From: a virus
Lineage: Duplodnaviria > Heunggongvirae > Uroviricota > Caudoviricetes
Strand: one strand, 5' to 3'
DNA length: 49,941 nt
Virus record (IMG/VR): IMGVR_UViG_2529293060_000008
Under the pieces are notes generated by a model, which saw nothing but the letters and a program-made list of their open reading frames with translations, did not search any database and had not been told where the DNA came from. How positions within the stretch are numbered: position 1 is the first letter of the stretch; each line of letters opens with the position of its first letter. Shown one piece after another: positions 6,161 to 19,184 of the stretch. Position numbers and translations under genes: made by a program.

Positions 6161-6321
6161 ACCGTCTCCCGTTTATTATTTATCTTCTCAGCCAGCCGCT
6201 GTGCTTTCAGTGGATTTCTGATAACAGAAAGGCCGGGAAATACCCAGCCTCGCTTCTTAACGGAGTAGACGAAAGTGATCGTGCCTACGCGGATATTATC
6301 GTGAGGATGTTTCATCGCCAT
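6133..6321 (-). CDS. Small conserved lambdoid protein (lambda orf61-like)
   Basis: 62-aa ORF immediately upstream of exo on the same strand; overlaps neighbours as in lambda. Confidence 0.4.
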
Positions 6322-6992
6322 TGCTCCCCAAATACAAAACCAATTTCAGCCAGTGCCTCGTCCATTTTTTCGATGAACTCCGGCACCATCTCGTCAAAAC
6401 TCGCTATATACTTTTCATTCCGCTCAATCACGACATAATGCAGGCCTTCACGCTTCATACGCGGGTCATAGTTGGCAAAGTACCAGGCATCTTTTCGCGT
6501 CACCCACATGCTGTACTGCACCTGGGCCATGTAAGCCGACTTTATGGCCTCGAAACCACCGAGCCGGAATTTCATGAAATCTCGGGAGGTAAACGGGCAT
6601 TTCAGCTCAAGGCCATTGCCGTCACTGCATAAACCATCGGGAGAGCAGGCGGTGCGCATACTTTCGTCGCGATAGATTATCGGGGATTCAGTAACATTCA
6701 CGCCGGAAGTAAACTCAAACAGGGCTCTGGCGTCGTTCTCGTACTGTTTTCCCCAGGCCAGCGCCTTAGCGTTAACTTCCGGAGCCACACCGGTGCAAAT
6801 CTCAGCCAGCAGGGTGTGAAAGTAGGACATTTTCATGTCAGGCCACTTTTTTCCGGAGCGGGGTTTTGCTATCACATTGTGAACTTCTGAAGCCGTGATG
6901 ACGCCGAGTCGTAATTTGTGCCACGCATCATCTCCCTGTTCGACAGCTCTCACGTCGATCCCGGTACGCTGCAGGATAATGTCCGGTGTCAT
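6312..6992 (-). CDS. exo: Lambda exonuclease (Red alpha)
   Basis: 226 aa, matches lambda Exo as recalled ([58 protein letters not shown]...). Confidence 0.95.
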
Positions 6993-7774
6993 GCTGCCAC
7001 CTTCTGTTCAGTGGCTTTTTGTTTCAGGAATCCAAGAGCTTTCACTGCTTCGTCCTGTGTCAGTTCTGACGATGCACGAATGTCGCGGCGAAATATCTGG
7101 GAACAGAGCGGCAATAAGTCGTCATCCCATGTTTTATCCAGGGCGATCAGCAGAGTGTTAATCTCCTGCATGGTTTCATCGTTAACCGGAGTGATGTCGC
7201 GTTCTGGATGACGTTCTGCAGTGTATGCGGTATTTTCGACAATGCGCTCGGCTTCATCCTTGTCATAGATACCAGCAAATCCGAAGGCCAGACGGGCACA
7301 CTGAATCATGGCTTTATGCCGTAACATCCGTTTGGGATGCGACTGCCACGGTCCGGTGATTTCTCTGCCTTCGCGGGTTTTGAATGGTTCGCGGCGGCAT
7401 TCATCCATCCACTCGGTAACGCAGATCGGATGATTGCGGTCTTTGCGGTAAATCCGGCACGTACATGATTCATTGTCCTGCTCAAAGTCCATGCCATCAA
7501 ACTGCTGGTTTTCATTGATGATGCGGGACCAGCCATCAACGCCCACCACCGGAACGATGCCGTTCTGCTTATCAGGGAAGGCGTAAATTTCTTTCGTCCA
7601 CGGATTAAGGCCGTACTGGTTGGCGACGATCAACAATGCGATGAACTGCGCATCGCTGGCATCACCTTTAAATGCCGTCTGGCGAAGAGTGGTGATCAGT
7701 TCCTGTGGGTCGACAGAATCCATGCCGACACGTTCAGCCAGCTTCCCAGCCAGCGTTGCGAGTGCTGTACTCAT
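6989..7774 (-). CDS. bet: Red beta single-strand annealing protein
   Basis: 261 aa, matches lambda Bet; ATGA overlap with exo. Confidence 0.95.
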
Positions 7775-7779
7775 CCGTT

Positions 7780-8076
7780 TTATACCTCTGAATCAATATC
7801 AACCTGGTGGTGAGCAATGGTTTCAACCATGTACCGGATGTGTTCTGCCATGCGCTCCTGAAACTCAACATCGTCATCGAACGCACGGGTAATGGCTTTT
7901 TTGCTGACCCCGTGGCGTTGCAAATGATCGATGCATAGCGATTCAAACAGGTGCTGGGGCAGGCCTTTTTCCATGTCGTCTGCCAGTTCTGCCTCTTTCT
8001 CTTCACGGGCGATCTGCTGGTAGTGACGCGCCCAGCTCTGAGCCTCAAGACGATCCTGAATGTAATAAGCGTTCAT
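7780..8076 (-). CDS. gam: Gam (RecBCD inhibitor), short form only
   Basis: 98 aa [61 protein letters not shown]...; an in-frame stop lies 18 codons upstream, so the long isoform is not encoded. Confidence 0.9.
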
Positions 8077-8151
8077 GGCTGAACTCCTGAAAATGGCTGT
8101 GAAAATATCGCCCGCGAAATGCCAGGCTGATTAGGAAAACAGGAAAGGGGG

Positions 8152-8562
8152 TTAGTGATTCAGGCCGTTGCCGCGTCCGTCGAGAAAAACTTCCACGAGC
8201 AAGTCACGGGTATAAGTGCGCTCGATGCCGCGATGCAGATAAAGCCGTCCGCGTAAATTAGCTGATGCAGTCCAGGTACCATCTTTGTGTTTGACCAGCA
8301 TTCCTGGCATGACCGCACCGCGATTAACGGTCTGCGTTCCGTAATGTTGATGAACCATAAAAACTCCTGCCCGTAAGCTGGGCTGCTGAACATATAAAGA
8401 CTTCTGCGCGTATTCAGGCGGTGGATGGCCGCCGGTTGTCATAACTAAGCCGCCTCGTTGAAGCGACTGAGGTATGAAGTGTTGAGTTGATTTCAGCTGG
8501 TCACACCGACGTTCACGCGTCCGCTTCACCCCTCGCACTCCCCGGAGCCTGCTGAAATTCAA
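8152..8562 (-). CDS. Hypothetical early-left protein; Arg-rich N-terminus if the non-ATG start is used (possible N-like antiterminator), alternative ATG start at 8442
   Basis: Track ORF starts at TTG; Arg-rich segment [18 protein letters not shown] resembles an arginine-rich RNA-binding motif; the ATG at 8442 has a GAGG upstream; the rest is not similar to lambda N as I recall it. Confidence 0.3.
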
Positions 8563-8635
8563 GCTGCGGATCTAAGCGGTCATCGCAACGGTGAATCAGG
8601 TGATTGCCGTATCGTTGTGTTGTTGCGACATGGTG

Positions 8636-8690
8636 ACAATAGCTATTGCTATTGATGATATCAATACTTATTGCTATTGCTAGATGTGTT
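8636..8690 (-). promoter_or_regulatory. Candidate OL/pL: operator-like palindromes overlapping a leftward promoter
   Basis: Perfect palindrome CAATAGCTATTG (8636..8647), inverted repeat ATTGAT-gat-ATCAAT, repeated TTGCTATTG; on the minus strand TTGATA-17 nt-TATTGT fits -35/-10; the same 9-mer recurs in the cI-cro intergenic region. Confidence 0.4.
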
Positions 8691-8800
8691 TTGATATTAA
8701 ATATTTGATAGCAAAAAGAATTAATTTTGTGACTTGCATCGCATAGCGATAACTGAAGCGGGGTTGTGGTGGTTTTTTGAACGGTGTGTGTGATGAGGGG

Positions 8801-8831
8801 AGGCAAAAGAAAACCCGGCACGGTGGCCGGG
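8801..8831 (-). terminator. Rho-independent terminator ending the cI-side leftward operon
   Basis: Stem CCCGGC-acggtg-GCCGGG followed on the minus strand by TTTTCTTTTG, a few bases after the stop of the PIN-like gene. Confidence 0.6.
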
Positions 8832-8836
8832 ACGTT

Positions 8837-9349
8837 TTATTTCAAAGAAAAATTATGACTAGCGTATCTTGGAAGAAATTCATATAGTGTTAATGTCTTA
8901 ACGCCGTGAGAAGCAGCAGCATCCGGGATCATTATTCTTTTTTTAGGTTTGCCACCGGATGGTTTCTCATGGGTAATAATAGTATATCCATGTGTCATCG
9001 CATGGGCTATTAAAAAAGCATCTGCTTTTTCATGGCTTGCAAAATCAAACTTTGCCTTTTCGGTAACATCTAATTTAGTTGACCAATTTATTAACTTTGC
9101 ATAATTTTCTATTGAACTATGCTCATCTTCGAAGAATGATGATGGTAACTCTTCTTTAATCCATTTACACAATGGATCATCTTTTGCACATAGTTCTTTT
9201 TTTACAGCATTAATGCTATAAATCAGACCATTAATGTGTAAAGCGAGAAGAAAATCCCAAAATATTTTGCAATAATTGAAGTTATATGCAAAGTTTTTTG
9301 CCTCTATGAAGACATTACTATCAATTAAGAATTTTCCATTATGAATCAT
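8837..9349 (-). CDS. PIN-like nuclease (DUF4411-like), putative toxin or effector
   Basis: 170 aa; N-terminal FLIDSNVFIE and C-terminal DAFLIAHAMTHGYTIITHE resemble PIN-domain motifs; start ATG overlaps the upstream stop (ATGA); visibly AT-rich. Confidence 0.6.
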   Translation of the reverse strand: MIHNGKFLIDSNVFIEAKNFAYNFNYCKIFWDFLLALHINGLIYSINAVKKELCAKDDPLCKWIKEELPSSFFEDEHSSIENYAKLINWSTKLDVTEKAKFDFASHEKADAFLIAHAMTHGYTIITHEKPSGGKPKKRIMIPDAAASHGVKTLTLYEFLPRYASHNFSLK

Positions 9350-10485
9350 AGAGATTCTCGTTTTTTATAAAATTCAACAACTGTATCTGCTTTTACATTT
9401 AGCAGTACGCCTGCTTCCCTTAATGGTAATTGTTGAGACATTGCTTTGGAAATTATTATATTCGTAAGTTTTGGACTGTTACGAACAGGTAATGTGTTAA
9501 AGAAAGAACCACCATTAGATTCTTTTTTGGGCTTATTGTAAGCTTGATCTTTAATTATCTCCAAAGTGTTTCTTTCTATCAAATCTAATTGTAACGCTTT
9601 GATTGCACAAGCGAAATCACTAACCTTAAATAACTTAGAAACCTCTTTTACTCGATAATAATTATTATCGCTGGATGCATTAAGCCAGAAAGATTTGAAG
9701 AGATTATCAGGCATTAAGATTTCAGCAGCAACTTTATTACAAAAAGATTCTATGTTTTTTTCTGTGTCCCACCCAGAGACTCCATCGACTCCAAGCCAAA
9801 GATGAGCCACCTCATGAAATAATGTAAATACCTGCGCAGATAACGCGTCCGAGCTATTTACAAAAATGATCGGAGCAACGCTATCAGATATACAGAAACC
9901 ACGAAACTCTCGCGTGTCAAGTTTTCTTTTATTATTATTACCCACAACACCATTCTTGAAAACTAATACGCCAGTGTCTTCTATTAATTTTGCCACTTTA
10001 GAAAAATAGCTCTCAAAAGTGACATTTTTTATCTCTTTTTGTATATCAAAATGTATTGTGTTTGCTATGTCTGTAGCAACAACCTTATAATTTAATTTTC
10101 TATTAAATTTAAATTTACCAATAAAATCGAGTGGATCATCATTACCATTTTCTCTTAAATAGTCTTTGTACCACTCAAGTTTATATTCTATATCATAGTA
10201 AACATCAAAAAAATCTTTTCCTAACTCACGGCTATTTATAGCTTGCCTTAAGTCAGGGATCTTGGGTTTGGCTGGAGTTGGTGGCGTTTCAAGAAATAAA
10301 AAACCGAAAGGGATTCCTCCAATTTTTGCCAGTTTTTCTGCTGCGGATTTACTTACCACTCCGTTAAGAAATTTATTAATCTTTTTGGGCATGACTTGGT
10401 CAGCAAGAGTTTCGATAGAAACTCCTTGAGAATTTGCTATCCAATCAATCATCTTCCTAGACAATTGAAATTCAACCGCTGCCAT
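9346..10485 (-). CDS. ImmA/IrrE-family Zn-metallopeptidase with N-terminal possible DNA-binding region, putative antitoxin or sensor
   Basis: 379 aa; HExxH in FTLFHEVAHLW followed by ESFCNKVAAEILMP, characteristic of ImmA/IrrE (COG2856) peptidases; AGGTGA Shine-Dalgarno 5 nt before the ATG; AT-rich. Confidence 0.65.
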   Translation of the reverse strand: MAAVEFQLSRKMIDWIANSQGVSIETLADQVMPKKINKFLNGVVSKSAAEKLAKIGGIPFGFLFLETPPTPAKPKIPDLRQAINSRELGKDFFDVYYDIEYKLEWYKDYLRENGNDDPLDFIGKFKFNRKLNYKVVATDIANTIHFDIQKEIKNVTFESYFSKVAKLIEDTGVLVFKNGVVGNNNKRKLDTREFRGFCISDSVAPIIFVNSSDALSAQVFTLFHEVAHLWLGVDGVSGWDTEKNIESFCNKVAAEILMPDNLFKSFWLNASSDNNYYRVKEVSKLFKVSDFACAIKALQLDLIERNTLEIIKDQAYNKPKKESNGGSFFNTLPVRNSPKLTNIIISKAMSQQLPLREAGVLLNVKADTVVEFYKKRESL

Positions 10486-10614
10486 GTTATCACCTAGTTA
10501 AAAAAAACTATTATTCAACAATTATTGTTGTGCACCTGATAGCTAACGTCAAGCCTAATTTATTGCCTTACTACAGTAAGCTGAAAAGCGAAGTGCATAA
10601 TTTTGTTCTGATTT
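10486..10614 (-). promoter_or_regulatory. Intergenic region with candidate promoter and 15-bp near-palindrome CAACAATTATTGTTG (10517..10531)
   Basis: Minus strand shows TTGACG then an AT-rich -10-like segment; inverted repeat CAACAA-tta-TTGTTG could be an autoregulatory operator. Confidence 0.3.
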
Positions 10615-11307
10615 CTACCCATGCTTTCTATATGTCTGCGGCATGCTCCCGATGACTTTCCCGAAGATGAACACGCGGTTCATCTCGTCTTTCTCGATCG
10701 GGTCCCACGGTGAGTAGCTCTTGTTATCAGAGATAACCAGCAGCTTATCCTTCATCATTTGCAGGCGTTTTACATGGGCGGTGTCGTCATACAGAAACGC
10801 ATAGATACCATCACCGTCGAAAGATTTAACCGTGATATCAACGAACAGCAGATCACCTGGTTCGATCGTTCCTGACATGCTGTCACCACGCACGTTAATG
10901 ATGCGGATATTTTCCGCCTTCCTGCCATCGAACATGTGACGAGCATCGTCAAACGAGTATTCAACCGAGCGTAGAACTTCTACAAACTCACGGTTGATTA
11001 CACCCGGCCCGGCACTGACTTCTATATCAAGAACGTCAATTTTGAAGTATTTGGAATGGCTGACAGCAGGCTTCCCTGATTGTTGACCGTCATTTCTCAT
11101 CGGGCCTATGCCTGAAGAGAGCCATTCTGTTCGAACACCCAATGCATTAGCTATTTCAACAATTTTTGTTGAGCCGCGCGCGTTGCCGCTTGTCAGTCTC
11201 CAGATTGTGGGTTGAGCTACGCCAGACGCCTTTGCAAGAGCGCCTTGAGACATTCCAGATTGTTCCATCGCTAGATTTAAGCGATCAGCAAGAGTTTCTT
11301 TTTTCAT
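10615..11307 (-). CDS. cI: CI-like repressor (HTH plus LexA/S24 autopeptidase domain)
   Basis: HTH segment SQGALAKASGVAQPTIWRL; S24 motifs VSAGPG (Ala-Gly cleavage site), GDSM (Ser), VKRL (Lys); ATG at 11307 preceded by TATAAA about 9 nt upstream (near-leaderless); divergent from cro. Confidence 0.85.
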   Translation of the reverse strand: MKKETLADRLNLAMEQSGMSQGALAKASGVAQPTIWRLTSGNARGSTKIVEIANALGVRTEWLSSGIGPMRNDGQQSGKPAVSHSKYFKIDVLDIEVSAGPGVINREFVEVLRSVEYSFDDARHMFDGRKAENIRIINVRGDSMSGTIEPGDLLFVDITVKSFDGDGIYAFLYDDTAHVKRLQMMKDKLLVISDNKSYSPWDPIEKDEMNRVFIFGKVIGSMPQTYRKHG

Positions 11308-11417
11308 AAGTTTTAATTTATACGCTTGCGTATTGATGGTCAAAACACGTTTTGCTATTGCTTGGATTAATACGCATTGCTATTATTCATTCATTGCAAT
11401 ACCAATAGGAATTGATA
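11308..11417. promoter_or_regulatory. Candidate OR with divergent pR / pRM between cI and cro
   Basis: Repeated TTGCTATTG-type motifs (11352.., 11377..); TTGCTT-17 nt-TATTAT on the plus strand upstream of cro; TATAAA on the minus strand upstream of cI; ATTGC...GCAAT inverted repeats. Confidence 0.45.
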
Positions 11418-11645
11418 ATGACAAATCAAACCATTCAACTCGCAATCAGTATTACAGGCAGTCAAAAACGACTGGCAGATCTATGCGGTGTAGCCCAACC
11501 CACAGTTTGGCGTTGGCTACACGGTGGCGGAATTGATGCCCGCTATGTAATGAAAATTGTCTCAGCCACTGGTGGAAAGATTAAACCAGCAGATATTCGT
11601 CCCGACCTCGCACCATTGTTTAACGCGAGTAATTCTGCCGCCTAA
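11418..11645 (+). CDS. cro: Cro-like HTH repressor
   Basis: 75 aa with HTH (SQKRLADLCGVAQPTVWRWLHG); AGGA Shine-Dalgarno 8 nt upstream; divergent from cI. Confidence 0.75.
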   Translation: MTNQTIQLAISITGSQKRLADLCGVAQPTVWRWLHGGGIDARYVMKIVSATGGKIKPADIRPDLAPLFNASNSAA

Positions 11646-11669
11646 ACTGCGGCGTTAACTGATAAGGCA

Positions 11670-12215
11670 ATGACTATGCAACCACTTACATACCAACAGA
11701 CTAGCGGATTTAGCCCGACTGCGGTGATAAATCGTTCTCAAACAAAACAGGTGGCAGGCCACGAAAAAATCCGTGATGCCGTCCGCGCCTGGTCGGCTGT
11801 AGATAATCAGGATGTCGTTGCCACACTCATTGTGAATGAGTATCGGGAGCAGGGCGGCGGCACCATCGATTTCCCTGATGATGTCAGCCGTGCACGCCAG
11901 AAGCTGTTCCGCTTCCTCGATAACAAATTCGATTCTGAAAAATACCGAAATAACGTGCGTGAACTGACCCCGGCAATTCTGGCGGTACTACCGCTGGAAT
12001 ATCGCAGTTACCTGGTTGAGCAGGATAGCTTCATGGCTAGGTTGGCTGAAATGGAAAAGGAACTCAGTGAGGCAAAACAGGCTGTCATTCTCAACGCACC
12101 ACGCCACCAGAAACTGAAGGAAATTAGTGAAGGTATTGTATCGATGTTTCGTGTGGACCCGGATCTGGCTGGTCCATTGATGGCGATGGTTACTACCATG
12201 CTGGGGGCGATATGA
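11670..12215 (+). CDS. YdaT-family protein in the cII position
   Basis: 181 aa; segments NEYREQGGG and LTPAILAVLPLEYR resemble Rac-prophage YdaT as I recall it; sits between cro and O. Confidence 0.45.
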   Translation: MTMQPLTYQQTSGFSPTAVINRSQTKQVAGHEKIRDAVRAWSAVDNQDVVATLIVNEYREQGGGTIDFPDDVSRARQKLFRFLDNKFDSEKYRNNVRELTPAILAVLPLEYRSYLVEQDSFMARLAEMEKELSEAKQAVILNAPRHQKLKEISEGIVSMFRVDPDLAGPLMAMVTTMLGAI

Positions 12216-12301
12216 CAGGTTCAGAAATGGCGAAAGCCGGTCTGCTGGAACAGAACCGACTTTCAGGTGCAAATCGTAACACACTCATTGCGGGAGGAAT
12301 T

Positions 12302-13231
12302 ATGGCAAACACTGCTGAGATATTCAATTTTCCAGTGCCGGATGCGGCACAAAAGGAGCCGCGCGTGGCAGATCTCGATGATGGTTATACGCGCATTGCA
12401 AATGAGTTGCTGGAAGCTGTGATGCTGGCCGGATTAACACAGCACCAGCTTCTGGTCTTCCTGGCTGTCATGCGCAAAACATATGGCTTTAATAAAAAAC
12501 TGGATTGGGTGAGCAACGAGCAACTGTCCGGATTGACCGGGATATTACCGCACAAGTGTTCTGCTGCAAAAAGTGTTCTGGTAAAGCGTGGGATTTTGAT
12601 TCAGAGCGGGCGGAATATCGGTATTAATAATGTGGTCAGTGAATGGTCAACATTACCCGAATCAGGTAAGAAAAATAAAGTTTACCTGAAAGAGGTAAAT
12701 TTACCTGAATCAGGTAAGAAAAGTTTACCCAAATCAGGTAAAGGCGTTTACCCGAATCAGGTAAACACAAAAGACAAACTAACAAAAGACAATATAAAAC
12801 CTTTTTCGTCCGAGAATTCTGGCGAATCCTCTGACCAACCAGAAAACGATCTTCCTGTGGTGAAACCAGATGCTGCAATTCAGAGCGGCAGCAAGTGGGG
12901 GACAGCAGAAGACCTGACCGCCGCAGAGTGGATGTTTGACATGGTGAAGACCATCGCACCATCAGCCAGAAAACCGAATTTTGCAGGGTGGGCTAACGAT
13001 ATCCGCCTGATGCGTGAACGTGACGGACGTAACCACCGCGACATGTGCGTGCTTTTCCGCTGGGCATGCCAGGACAACTTCTGGTCCGGTAACGTGCTAA
13101 GTCCGGCCAAACTCCGCGACAAGTGGACCCAACTCGAAATCAACCGTAACAAGCAACAGGCAGGCATGATAGCCAGCAAACCAAAACTCGACCTGACAAA
13201 CACTGACTGGATTTACGGGGTGGATTTATGA
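12302..13231 (+). CDS. O: Replication initiator O
   Basis: N-terminus MANTAEIFNF...VADLDDGYTRIANELLEA aligns with lambda O (MTNTAKILNF...VADLDDGYARL); GGAGG before the ATG at 12302; iterons inside the gene; the track ORF extends to 12212, which I treat as upstream read-through. Confidence 0.85.
   Translation: MANTAEIFNFPVPDAAQKEPRVADLDDGYTRIANELLEAVMLAGLTQHQLLVFLAVMRKTYGFNKKLDWVSNEQLSGLTGILPHKCSAAKSVLVKRGILIQSGRNIGINNVVSEWSTLPESGKKNKVYLKEVNLPESGKKSLPKSGKGVYPNQVNTKDKLTKDNIKPFSSENSGESSDQPENDLPVVKPDAAIQSGSKWGTAEDLTAAEWMFDMVKTIAPSARKPNFAGWANDIRLMRERDGRNHRDMCVLFRWACQDNFWSGNVLSPAKLRDKWTQLEINRNKQQAGMIASKPKLDLTNTDWIYGVDL
12654..12800. repeat. Replication origin: four palindromic iterons TTACC(C/T)(G/A)AATCAGGTAA plus AT-rich tract, inside O
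   Basis: Iterons at 12654, 12701, 12725, 12748 and a degenerate copy TTTACCTgaaagAGGTAAA; followed by aaaagacaaactaacaaaagacaatataaaac; same layout as ori-lambda. Confidence 0.8.
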
Positions 13232-13929
13232 AAAACATCGCCGCACAGATGGTTAACTTTGACCGTGAGCAGATGCGTCGGATCGCCAACAACATGCCGG
13301 AACAGTACGACGAAAAGCCGCAGGTACAGCAGGTAGCGCAGATCATCAACGGTGTGTTCAGCCAGTTACTGGCAACTTTCCCGGCGAGCCTGGCTAACCG
13401 TGACCAGAATGAACTGAACGAAATCCGCCGCCAGTGGGTGCTGGCTTTTCGGGAAAACGGGATCACCACAATGGAACAGGTTAACGCTGGAATGCGCGTA
13501 GCCCGTCGGCAGAATCGACCATTCCTGCCATCACCCGGGCAGTTTGTCGCCTGGTGCCGGGAAGAAGCATCCGTTAACGCCGGGCTGCCAAACGCCAGCG
13601 AGCTGGTTGATATGGTTTACGAGTATTGCCGGAAGCGTGGCCTTTATCCGGATGCAGAGTCTTATCCATGGAAATCAAACGCGCACTACTGGTTGGTTAC
13701 CAACCTGTATCAGAACATGCGGGCCAATGCGCTGACTGATGCGGAATTACGGCGCAAGGCTGCCGATGAACTGACTTGTATGACCGCGCGAATTAATCGT
13801 GGTGAGGCGATACCTGAACCAGTAAAACAACTTCCTGTCATGGGCGGTAGACCACTTAACCGGGCTCAGGCTCTGGCGAAGATCGCAGAAATCAAAGCTA
13901 AGTTCGGACTGAAAGGAGCCAGTGTATGA
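13228..13929 (+). CDS. P: Replication protein P (DnaB loader)
   Basis: 233 aa, near-identical to lambda P as recalled; ATGA overlap with O. Confidence 0.95.
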   Translation: MKNIAAQMVNFDREQMRRIANNMPEQYDEKPQVQQVAQIINGVFSQLLATFPASLANRDQNELNEIRRQWVLAFRENGITTMEQVNAGMRVARRQNRPFLPSPGQFVAWCREEASVNAGLPNASELVDMVYEYCRKRGLYPDAESYPWKSNAHYWLVTNLYQNMRANALTDAELRRKAADELTCMTARINRGEAIPEPVKQLPVMGGRPLNRAQALAKIAEIKAKFGLKGASV

Positions 13930-18539: not shown

Positions 18540-18728
18540 TCTACCTTTGATTTTCCATAATCAACCAGCAATAATAATGTCACCGGAGCCTGAACAACAT
18601 CGGTGACTTCTGCGCTAAACGGGGACGTTTATGCGCACATACAATCTAAACTCTCTTTTGCTGTCACAGATGCAGAAATGCACCTGCGATTTTTTGCATC
18701 CAGCGTTTGACCTCTGCGGAGGTGAATC

Positions 18729-19184
18729 GTGAACCTCCTACAAGATGGCATCAAATTGCATCGTGGTAACTTCACCGCTATCGGTCAGCAGATCCAGCCT
18801 TATCTGGAGGACGGCAAATGCTTTCGCATGGTGCTTAAACCGTGGCGCGAGAGACGCAGTCTTTCCCAGAATGCACTCAGCCACATGTGGTACAGCGAAA
18901 TCAGTGAATACCTCATCAGCAGGGGTAAAACGTTCGCCACTCCACCTTGGGTAAAAGATGCTCTCAAACACACTTATCTCGGTTATGAAACCAAAGAACT
19001 GGTTGATGTCGTAACCGGTGAAATCACCACCATTCAGTCATTACGTCATACCTCCGATCTCGATACCGGAGAGATGTATGTCTTCCTGTGTAAGGTTGAA
19101 GCCTGGGCGATGAATATTGGCTGCCACCTGACTATTCCGCAGAGCTGCGAGTTCCAGCTGCTCCGCGACAAGCAGGAGGCGTAA
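18729..19184 (+). CDS. ninB: NinB-family recombination protein (YbcN-like)
   Basis: 151 aa, GTG start with GGAGG upstream; [17 protein letters not shown] resembles the NinB motif RSLDQN...LW; followed by ninE as in DLP12. Confidence 0.6.

Follow-up and report, generated by a model that had tools for sequence, protein, structure and literature searches.

Operator-like words at positions 8636 to 8690 of a viral DNA stretch raise the question of whether a prophage repressor has its left and right operators there and in the cI-cro intergenic region. The stretch analyzed here (49,941 nucleotides; "the window") is a lambdoid E. coli prophage of the 4A7/Bievrevirus kind. An earlier note on this DNA had read the words at 8636-8690 as OL, and related words between cI and cro as OR, for the CI-like repressor. 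Judging from dyads shared by the leftward promoter pL and the cI-cro region, and from their co-variation with the repressor, our analysis supports that reading. Segments 8637-8679 and 11318-11385 are very likely OL and OR, respectively, of a lambda-type immunity switch.

Gene layout of the immunity region

To the left of the motif region, the minus strand carries exo (6312-6992), bet (6989-7774), gam (7780-8076), and kil, the last inside an open reading frame at 8152-8562 whose residues 60-136 match Kil. To the right, a terminator scan placed a bidirectional intrinsic terminator on both strands at 8814-8831, where it closes the cI-cargo transcription unit before OL; it is kept in homo- and heteroimmune relatives. 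Beyond it lie three more minus-strand genes. Cargo gene 2 (8837-9349), the PIN-like gene of the earlier note, encodes a DUF4411 protein (Pfam PF14367, E = 1e-37). Cargo gene 1 (9346-10485) encodes an RmrA/CapP-like M78 (ImmA/IrrE) metallopeptidase (Pfam PF06114; PADLOC capP, 1e-14; RmrA, 6e-8). The cI repressor gene (10615-11310) encodes an N-terminal HTH_3 domain and a C-terminal Peptidase_S24 autopeptidase domain (Pfam). A 107-bp intergenic region (11311-11417) separates cI from the plus-strand genes, which are cro (11418-11645), a YdaT-type CII analogue (11670-12215), and O- and P-like replication genes (12212-13929). Pfam assigned Cro to the YdaS family (YdaS_toxin, PF15943, 1e-14) and the CII analogue that follows it to the YdaT family (PF06254, 2e-29).

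The recognition helices of the two regulators are closely alike. In an alignment, CI has QPTIWRL and Cro has QPTVWRW, with QPT(I/V)WR common to both. The closest solved structure to the CI N-terminal domain is the 434 repressor (E of about 2e-5 over 60 residues), and Cro has weak similarity to the solved Cro proteins 3bd1 and 5w8y.

Downstream of pL (8152-8636, minus strand), we saw no N-like antiterminator gene, Kil being the only match. We also considered a structured or put-like RNA in the pL leader, which is about 190 nt long. An Rfam scan of 8000-12300 gave no credible match, including to such an RNA, and the fold of 8443-8629 on the minus strand had a z score of -0.5, so this candidate was dropped.

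The listed motifs are parts of an 18-bp dyad

The earlier note had listed three kinds of motif at 8636-8690, and a string search found every listed string in place. The perfect 12-bp palindrome CAATAGCTATTG lies at 8637-8648 and the inverted repeat ATTGAT-gat-ATCAAT at 8651-8665. The 9-mer TTGCTATTG occurs at 8646-8654 and 8671-8679, and it does recur between cI and cro, where the third of its three copies lies at 11352-11360; there is no other copy in 49,941 bp. Three copies compare with 0.48 expected, and 1 of 100 shuffles reached that number. A related word, CATTGCTATTA, lies at 11375-11385.

As markers, these words point to the right places, but as units they did not hold. Perfect 12-bp palindromes are present in the window at chance frequency (14, versus 12.2 ± 3.4 in shuffles). 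The one at 8637-8648 requires a C at 8637, where the other same-immunity sequences that we collected (70, comprising 37 variants) carry T. The 12-bp register is therefore private to the window, and we rejected it. The 6-3-6 inverted repeat is present too, and such repeats are somewhat overrepresented (22, versus 12.5 ± 3.6 in shuffles), but it is weak when taken by itself. It joins the last bases of one dyad (..TATTG) to the first bases of the next (CAATA..) across a 7-bp spacer, which is polymorphic (A8655G is common). Because adjacent dyads necessarily give such a repeat, we do not regard it as a site of its own. A 14-bp register (ATACGC..GCGTAT), which we used first, was dropped in favor of 18 bp, since the flanking Y-A and T-R are conserved.

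The functional unit, as predicted from the aligned sites, is instead the 18-bp dyad YAATASSNA-TNSSTATTR. Across 20 distinct sites, its half-site Y-A-A-T-A-S-S-N-A holds most information at positions 2 to 5 and 9, and the 9-mer TTGCTATTG is the consensus right half-site. Five units are present, two over pL and three between cI and cro, with centers 25 bp apart within each group; the OR group may include a fourth site.

A narrower reading would be that a subset of these sites is functional (e.g., OL1, OL2, and OR1), or that the register is the 12-bp palindrome or a 434-style core of 14 bp. The CI N-terminal domain does most resemble the 434 repressor, a user of 14-bp operators, and the central positions 6 to 8 of the half-sites carry little information. 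Against this stand the restriction of the 12-bp palindrome to the window and the outer positions 2 to 5 (AATA), which are the most conserved and stand 18 bp apart in every site and species. We consider the narrower reading very unlikely and proceed with five 18-bp units.

The dyads overlap divergent promoters

The earlier note had described a minus-strand promoter overlapping the motifs at 8636-8690, and a promoter scan recovered it. pL (8636-8664, minus strand; 9 of 12 consensus matches) has a -35 of TTGATA (8664-8659), a 17-bp spacer, and a -10 of TATTGT (8641-8636). Its start is predicted near 8629, from which it would read into kil-gam-bet-exo. In most relatives, the pL -10 is TATTAT; C8637 turns this into TATTGT as well as making the 12-bp palindrome perfect, and it may make pL slightly weaker.

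In the cI-cro region, the scan found pRM (11315-11343, minus strand), with a -35 of TTGACC (11343-11338), a 17-bp spacer, and a -10 of TAAATT (11320-11315). Its GGTCA and AATTTA are conserved across genera. The opposing promoter, pR (11358-11386, plus strand), was identified by eye. It has a -35 of TTGCTT (11358-11363), a 17-bp spacer, and a -10 of TATTAT (11381-11386); with 8 of 12 matches to the sigma-70 consensus, it fell under the scan threshold and so was not reported by the scan. The starts of pR and pRM are predicted near 11393 and 11309, respectively. The pRM -10 ends 7 nt before the cI ATG, and there is no Shine-Dalgarno sequence ahead of that codon; the cI mRNA is therefore probably leaderless or nearly so.

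Each dyad has a defined position relative to these promoters. OL1 (CAATAGCTATTGCTATTG, 8637-8654), the promoter-proximal site, spans the promoter spacer together with 5 bp of the pL -10, and the last 3 bp of OL2 (CAATACTTATTGCTATTG, 8662-8679), in the orientation of pL, start its -35. We saw no clear third OL site in the window, which has two strong OL sites only. On the other side of cI, the OR3 equivalent (TTATACGCTTGCGTATTG, 11318-11335), a nearly perfect dyad, lies within pRM. The OR2 equivalent (AAACACGTTTTGCTATTG, 11343-11360) adjoins the -35 of pRM and overlaps that of pR; its left half-site is poor, its sequence is conserved across genera, and it is centered about 42 bp upstream of where pRM is predicted to start, like OR2 of lambda. 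The OR1 equivalent (TAATACGCATTGCTATTA, 11368-11385), likewise conserved across genera, covers 5 bp of the pR -10 and has the top score in the window. The geometry of pL and pR is identical. In each, the distal operator gives the TTG of the -35 and, after a 7-bp spacer, the proximal operator gives the TATTR of the -10.

This overlap admits a different explanation, in which pL and pR simply offer similar elements to RNA polymerase and no repressor site is common to them. In both promoters, the motif ends fall on the TTG of the -35 hexamer and the TATTR of the -10 hexamer, the region is AT-rich, and, as the motif partly doubles as promoter hexamers, some of its conservation could be RNA polymerase's. 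However, the motif is dyad-symmetric and 18 bp long, conservation is as high between the hexamers as within them, and OR3 carries the motif as a dyad yet lies outside pR. Related phages, described below, bear further on this explanation.

The 129 bp separating cI from the M78 gene (10486-10614) include a minus-strand promoter-like sequence (TTGACG, 17 bp, AACAAT) at 10552-10524, and no minus-strand terminator was predicted there. The cargo may therefore be transcribed both by read-through from pRM and from its own promoter.

The motif is confined to the probable OL and OR within the window

The repressor-operator reading of the earlier note would have been undermined if the motifs occurred at similar density throughout the prophage. 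A 16-mer consensus has four sites in the window, compared with 0.39 expected. We also trained a symmetric matrix on the three OR sites alone and scanned the whole 49.9-kb window. The best nontraining matches were OL1 (17.0 bits) and OL2 (15.7 bits), relative to a 95th percentile of 16.2 bits for the best match in block-shuffled windows. With a matrix built from 20 distinct sites from the window and other genera, the top six matches all fell in OL or OR, and the next best scored 11.4 bits. The density is thus not similar elsewhere in the window. Three features are above chance: the 18-bp motif common to these sites, the 25-bp spacing, and the confinement to two promoter regions.

Conservation among loci with identical CI

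We examined the best 80 of 515 IMG/VR stretches encoding CI relatives, all 80 of which encode a 100% identical CI. Matches of at least 14 bits in these loci occupied four positions in OR and a single OL position 659 to 2007 bp past the cI stop codon; in most loci, this OL position holds two sites spaced by 25 bp. Stray matches elsewhere numbered four, and the five loci without a downstream match end within about 1.1 kb of cI. The OL1-OL2 pair is present in the identical-CI loci that extend far enough, as well as in five other genera. Among close relatives, 10 of 11 columns with common variants lie outside the sites. When all columns were considered, the excess of polymorphism outside the sites was only modest (Mann-Whitney P = 0.012; Fisher P = 0.054).

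This immunity type, to which phages 4A7 and PhiR70_1 also belong, is common. Of 5,426 complete E. coli genomes, 719 carry a segment comprising the cI N terminus and OR. A megablast search with a 101-bp OL block returned 63 genomes, versus 719 for OR; this low count probably reflects the need for a 28-base exact word on a short polymorphic query, not absence of OL.

Probable operator sequence follows the repressor DNA-binding domain

The same recognition helix, AQPTIWRL, occurs in seven loci from other genera: Klebsiella phage ST11-VIM1phi8.2, Salmonella phage SE1, and prophages of Kluyvera (three), Citrobacter, and Raoultella. Each of the seven retains three sites at OR and two or three at OL, again 25 bp apart, so that, counting Escherichia, same-helix loci with the motif span six genera. 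In an eight-way alignment of OR, invariant columns made up 48 of 54 positions in the sites, compared with 6 of 14 in the spacers and 6 of 32 in the cro leader, and the invariant spacer bases are those of the pRM -35. OR3 is invariant in eight of eight cross-species loci except for its last base.

The motif is absent from three heteroimmune controls, PhiR5_1, PhiR47_2, and a K. grimontii prophage, in which the helix is SQAAIQKI. PhiR5_1 and PhiR47_2 share with the window the cI C-terminal domain, the flanks of OL, and a YdaT-like protein that is 97 to 98% identical. They differ in the cI N terminus, cro, OR, and the block at 8629-8722, which have been exchanged together. At OL, that block alone is replaced, and both flanks are about 95% identical. 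The replacement OL of PhiR47_2 and its own OR share another motif, AAAACTATAGTTGTTTT. In a Mixta prophage, a variant helix (AQPSIWKL) is accompanied by a variant dyad, TAATAGTCTTGGCTATTT, at OR and by a pair of sites with 25-bp spacing at OL. Across same-helix, other-helix, and variant-helix cases, the operator sequence therefore co-varies with the DNA-binding domain of the repressor. On this co-variation, we assign the sites to CI and Cro rather than to the YdaT-like protein, a cargo-encoded regulator, or plain promoter similarity.

For the promoter-element explanation, the wholesale swap of the OL/OR motif in phages that differ only in the cI N terminus and cro is hard to accommodate, as the host RNA polymerase is unchanged. 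We regard that explanation as highly unlikely. Assignment of the sites to another nearby regulator, either the YdaT-type CII analogue or the HTH-containing M78 cargo peptidase, appears extremely unlikely. Both proteins are predicted to bind DNA, and YdaT of CP-933P binds an inverted repeat (PMC9986795). However, the heteroimmune phages lack the motif despite their nearly identical YdaT-like protein, and the site known for YdaT is located between ydaS and ydaT, with a different sequence. The motif is also unchanged in identical-CI loci with 17 other cargo types that lack the M78 gene.

The preferred reading, in which the dyads are CI and Cro operators, accords with what is found in lambdoid operators: several partly symmetric sites of 14 to 18 bp between cI and cro that overlap divergent promoters, a second locus of related sites over the leftward promoter beyond cI, specificity that co-varies with the repressor, and an HTH repressor with a LexA-like S24 self-cleavage domain, encoded divergently from a small Cro.

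A cargo slot between cI and the probable OL

The earlier note had also placed the peptidase/PIN cassette inside the immunity region, between OL and cI. This position was borne out, and the cassette is closed off by the bidirectional terminator at 8814-8831. In 68 loci with identical CI, 18 unrelated clusters of cargo were distinguished in the stretch from cI to OL. Since OL follows cI whichever cargo lies between, it travels with cI and not with the cargo.

The slot from the cI stop codon to the terminator and OL (8837-10614 in the window) is a cargo hotspot. Pfam matches among cargo representatives include a HipA-like kinase with DUF3037, an MqsA-like antitoxin, a SocA/Panacea antitoxin, DUF6932, and DUF6414, and GenBank relatives annotate HipA/HipD and GevT/GevA in the same slot.

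The roughly 110 bp between OL and the terminator (8724-8836) are about 95% identical even in heteroimmune phages, and for this reason the segment looks like a mosaic recombination junction. A small perfect hairpin-like repeat, ATCGC-ata-GCGAT, lies near 8739-8751.

Additional candidate elements

Beyond the five sites, we noted further matches of lower standing. A candidate fourth OR site (CAATACCAATAGGAATTG, 11397-11414) lies in the cro 5' leader, overlapping the Shine-Dalgarno sequence AGGA. It ranked fourth in the window, at 18.2 bits with the 20-site matrix, and lies 28 to 29 bp away, unlike the 25-bp spacing of the three OR sites. Its core, CAATAC-N4-AGGAATTG, is kept in seven of eight cross-species loci, and the preceding 10 to 11 bp diverge; this conservation may partly reflect the cro ribosome-binding site. 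A 12-bp word at 11403-11414, CAATAGGAATTG, which we had treated as a site of its own, was absorbed into this 18-bp candidate.

On the OL side, 8682-8699 (AGATGTGTTTTGATATTA), 20 bp from OL2, might be a weak OL3, an assignment that we make with low confidence. It ranks 45th of 49,924 positions, and only its right half-site is good. That half (..TATTA) is conserved in most loci, and full sites occur at this position, with the 20-bp offset, in the Klebsiella phage and in Raoultella.

A candidate fourth OL element lies at 8706-8723 (TGATAGCAAAAAGAATTA; rank 12 of 49,924). It includes a conserved half-site, TGATAGC, that stands 44 bp from OL2 in nine of nine loci compared. Alternatively, the element could be a site for IHF, whose textbook consensus is WATCAANNNNTTR. 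The segment is open to both readings because the same bases, on the minus strand (TATCAAATATTTA), fit the IHF core consensus, a match that we judged by eye. The element and the candidate fourth OR site have a similar noncanonical right half, A[A/G]GAATT.

It is possible, though we hold it only tentatively, that the switch has extra conserved elements absent from lambda, namely 11397-11414 over the cro Shine-Dalgarno sequence and the partner-like 8706-8723. If CI or Cro binds them, promoter occlusion would be combined with a block in the cro leader. A distinct class of site, if real, could also serve OL-OR bridging across a cargo slot of 0.7 to 2 kb.

Proposed operation of the switch

Our model of binding, site order, cooperativity, activation, and looping follows lambda and the footprinted CP-933P switch by analogy. 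CI dimers at OL1/OL2 and OR1/OR2, probably bound cooperatively, would occlude the -10 and -35 elements of pL and pR, and this would silence kil-gam-bet-exo on the left and cro-ydaT-O-P on the right. At OR2, abutting the pRM -35, CI would probably activate the leaderless cI transcript, and at OR3 it could switch pRM off as autorepression. Cro, with its nearly identical helix, should act at these sites as well and so lower pRM activity in lytic growth. Self-cleavage through the S24 domain, stimulated by RecA, would lead to prophage induction, and looping between OL and OR, which lie about 2.7 kb apart, is possible.

Such an operator model (the YAATASSNA dyad at 25-bp spacing) can be used to type prophage immunity and to predict which phages are homoimmune. 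Related immunity forms occur also in prophages of Salmonella, Klebsiella, Kluyvera, Citrobacter, and Raoultella. The model marks the bounds of the cI-OL slot, which holds varied toxin-antitoxin or defense-like cassettes. It leaves the general understanding of lambdoid switches unchanged and annotates a common immunity type.

Comparison with known switches

As in lambda, three operators lie between divergent pRM and pR promoters, with an OR2-like site abutting the pRM -35. The two predicted starts are about 83 bp apart, close to the 82 bp of lambda. Further likenesses are the predicted leaderless cI mRNA, the related operators over pL beyond cI, the accessory genes and terminator between cI and OL, at the position of rexAB, and a repressor made of HTH and S24 autopeptidase domains. 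Unlike lambda, the operators here are 18-bp dyads of unrelated sequence, spaced a uniform 25 bp rather than 24 and 23 bp. There are two strong OL sites, and the cro ribosome-binding site may be overlain by an additional operator. Cro is a YdaS-family protein, a YdaT-family protein replaces CII, and no N gene is visible downstream of pL.

Among solved structures, the nearest to the CI N-terminal domain is the 434 repressor, a dimeric HTH protein acting on dyad operators. Its operator is ACAA-N6-TTGT, 14 bp long, and its recognition helix is QQSIEQL, compared with QPTIWRL and 18-bp sites with AATA at the outer positions here. Given these differences in helix and site, operator sequence and length both differ from those of 434.

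Salmonella phage SE1 matches the window in its AQPTIWRL helix and in having three OR and two OL dyads at 25-bp spacing. The two are about 77% identical in nucleotide sequence over cI. SE1 differs in its P22-like virion module, its cargo (a ParA-like gene and DUF3024), and the presence of an N-like gene, gp24. The SE1 repressor is annotated as similar to CI of ST104, which represents a separate repressor specificity for which no operators were given (PMC2629481). The predicted specificity in the window matches this ST104/SE1 type of P22-like Salmonella phages. Among the papers listed by a literature search for the operator words, none dealt with phage operators, and for SE1, ST104, and ST64T we found no operator description. 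The motifs are very probably CI and Cro binding sites of an ordinary lambda-style switch, whose binding-site sequence was not found described in the literature searched.

Another close parallel is the PaaR2/YdaS/YdaT switch of CP-933P from E. coli O157:H7. In that prophage, four 18-bp palindromes overlap PRM and PR, the repressor gene is leaderless, and OL1 to OL3 lie at PL upstream of the repressor operon (PMC8630535, PMC9986795). Operator binding there was established by EMSA and DNase I footprinting (PMC8630535, PMC9986795), whereas the operators described here are predicted from sequence.

A perfect copy of the CP-933P YdaT repeat, TTGATT-N6-AATCAA, occurs in the window at 18547-18564, between genes and upstream of ninB (18729-19184), with about 0.003 copies estimated by chance. 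It could be a target of the YdaT/CII-type protein or a chance occurrence. A copy with one mismatch at 11412-11429 overlaps the cro start codon and is not conserved in the Klebsiella phage.

Both CP-933P and the window have a YdaS-type Cro, a YdaT-type CII analogue, 18-bp operators, a leaderless repressor gene (predicted here), and cargo inside the immunity region. The four repeats of CP-933P are equally spaced, whereas here three are equally spaced and the possible fourth is 28 to 29 bp off. The cargo also differs, with the toxin-antitoxin pair paaA2-parE2 in CP-933P and the M78 peptidase with DUF4411 in the window. As judged from sequence features, the locus has the same architecture as CP-933P with a different specificity, the half-site being GTTTAGTAA in CP-933P and YAATASSNA here.
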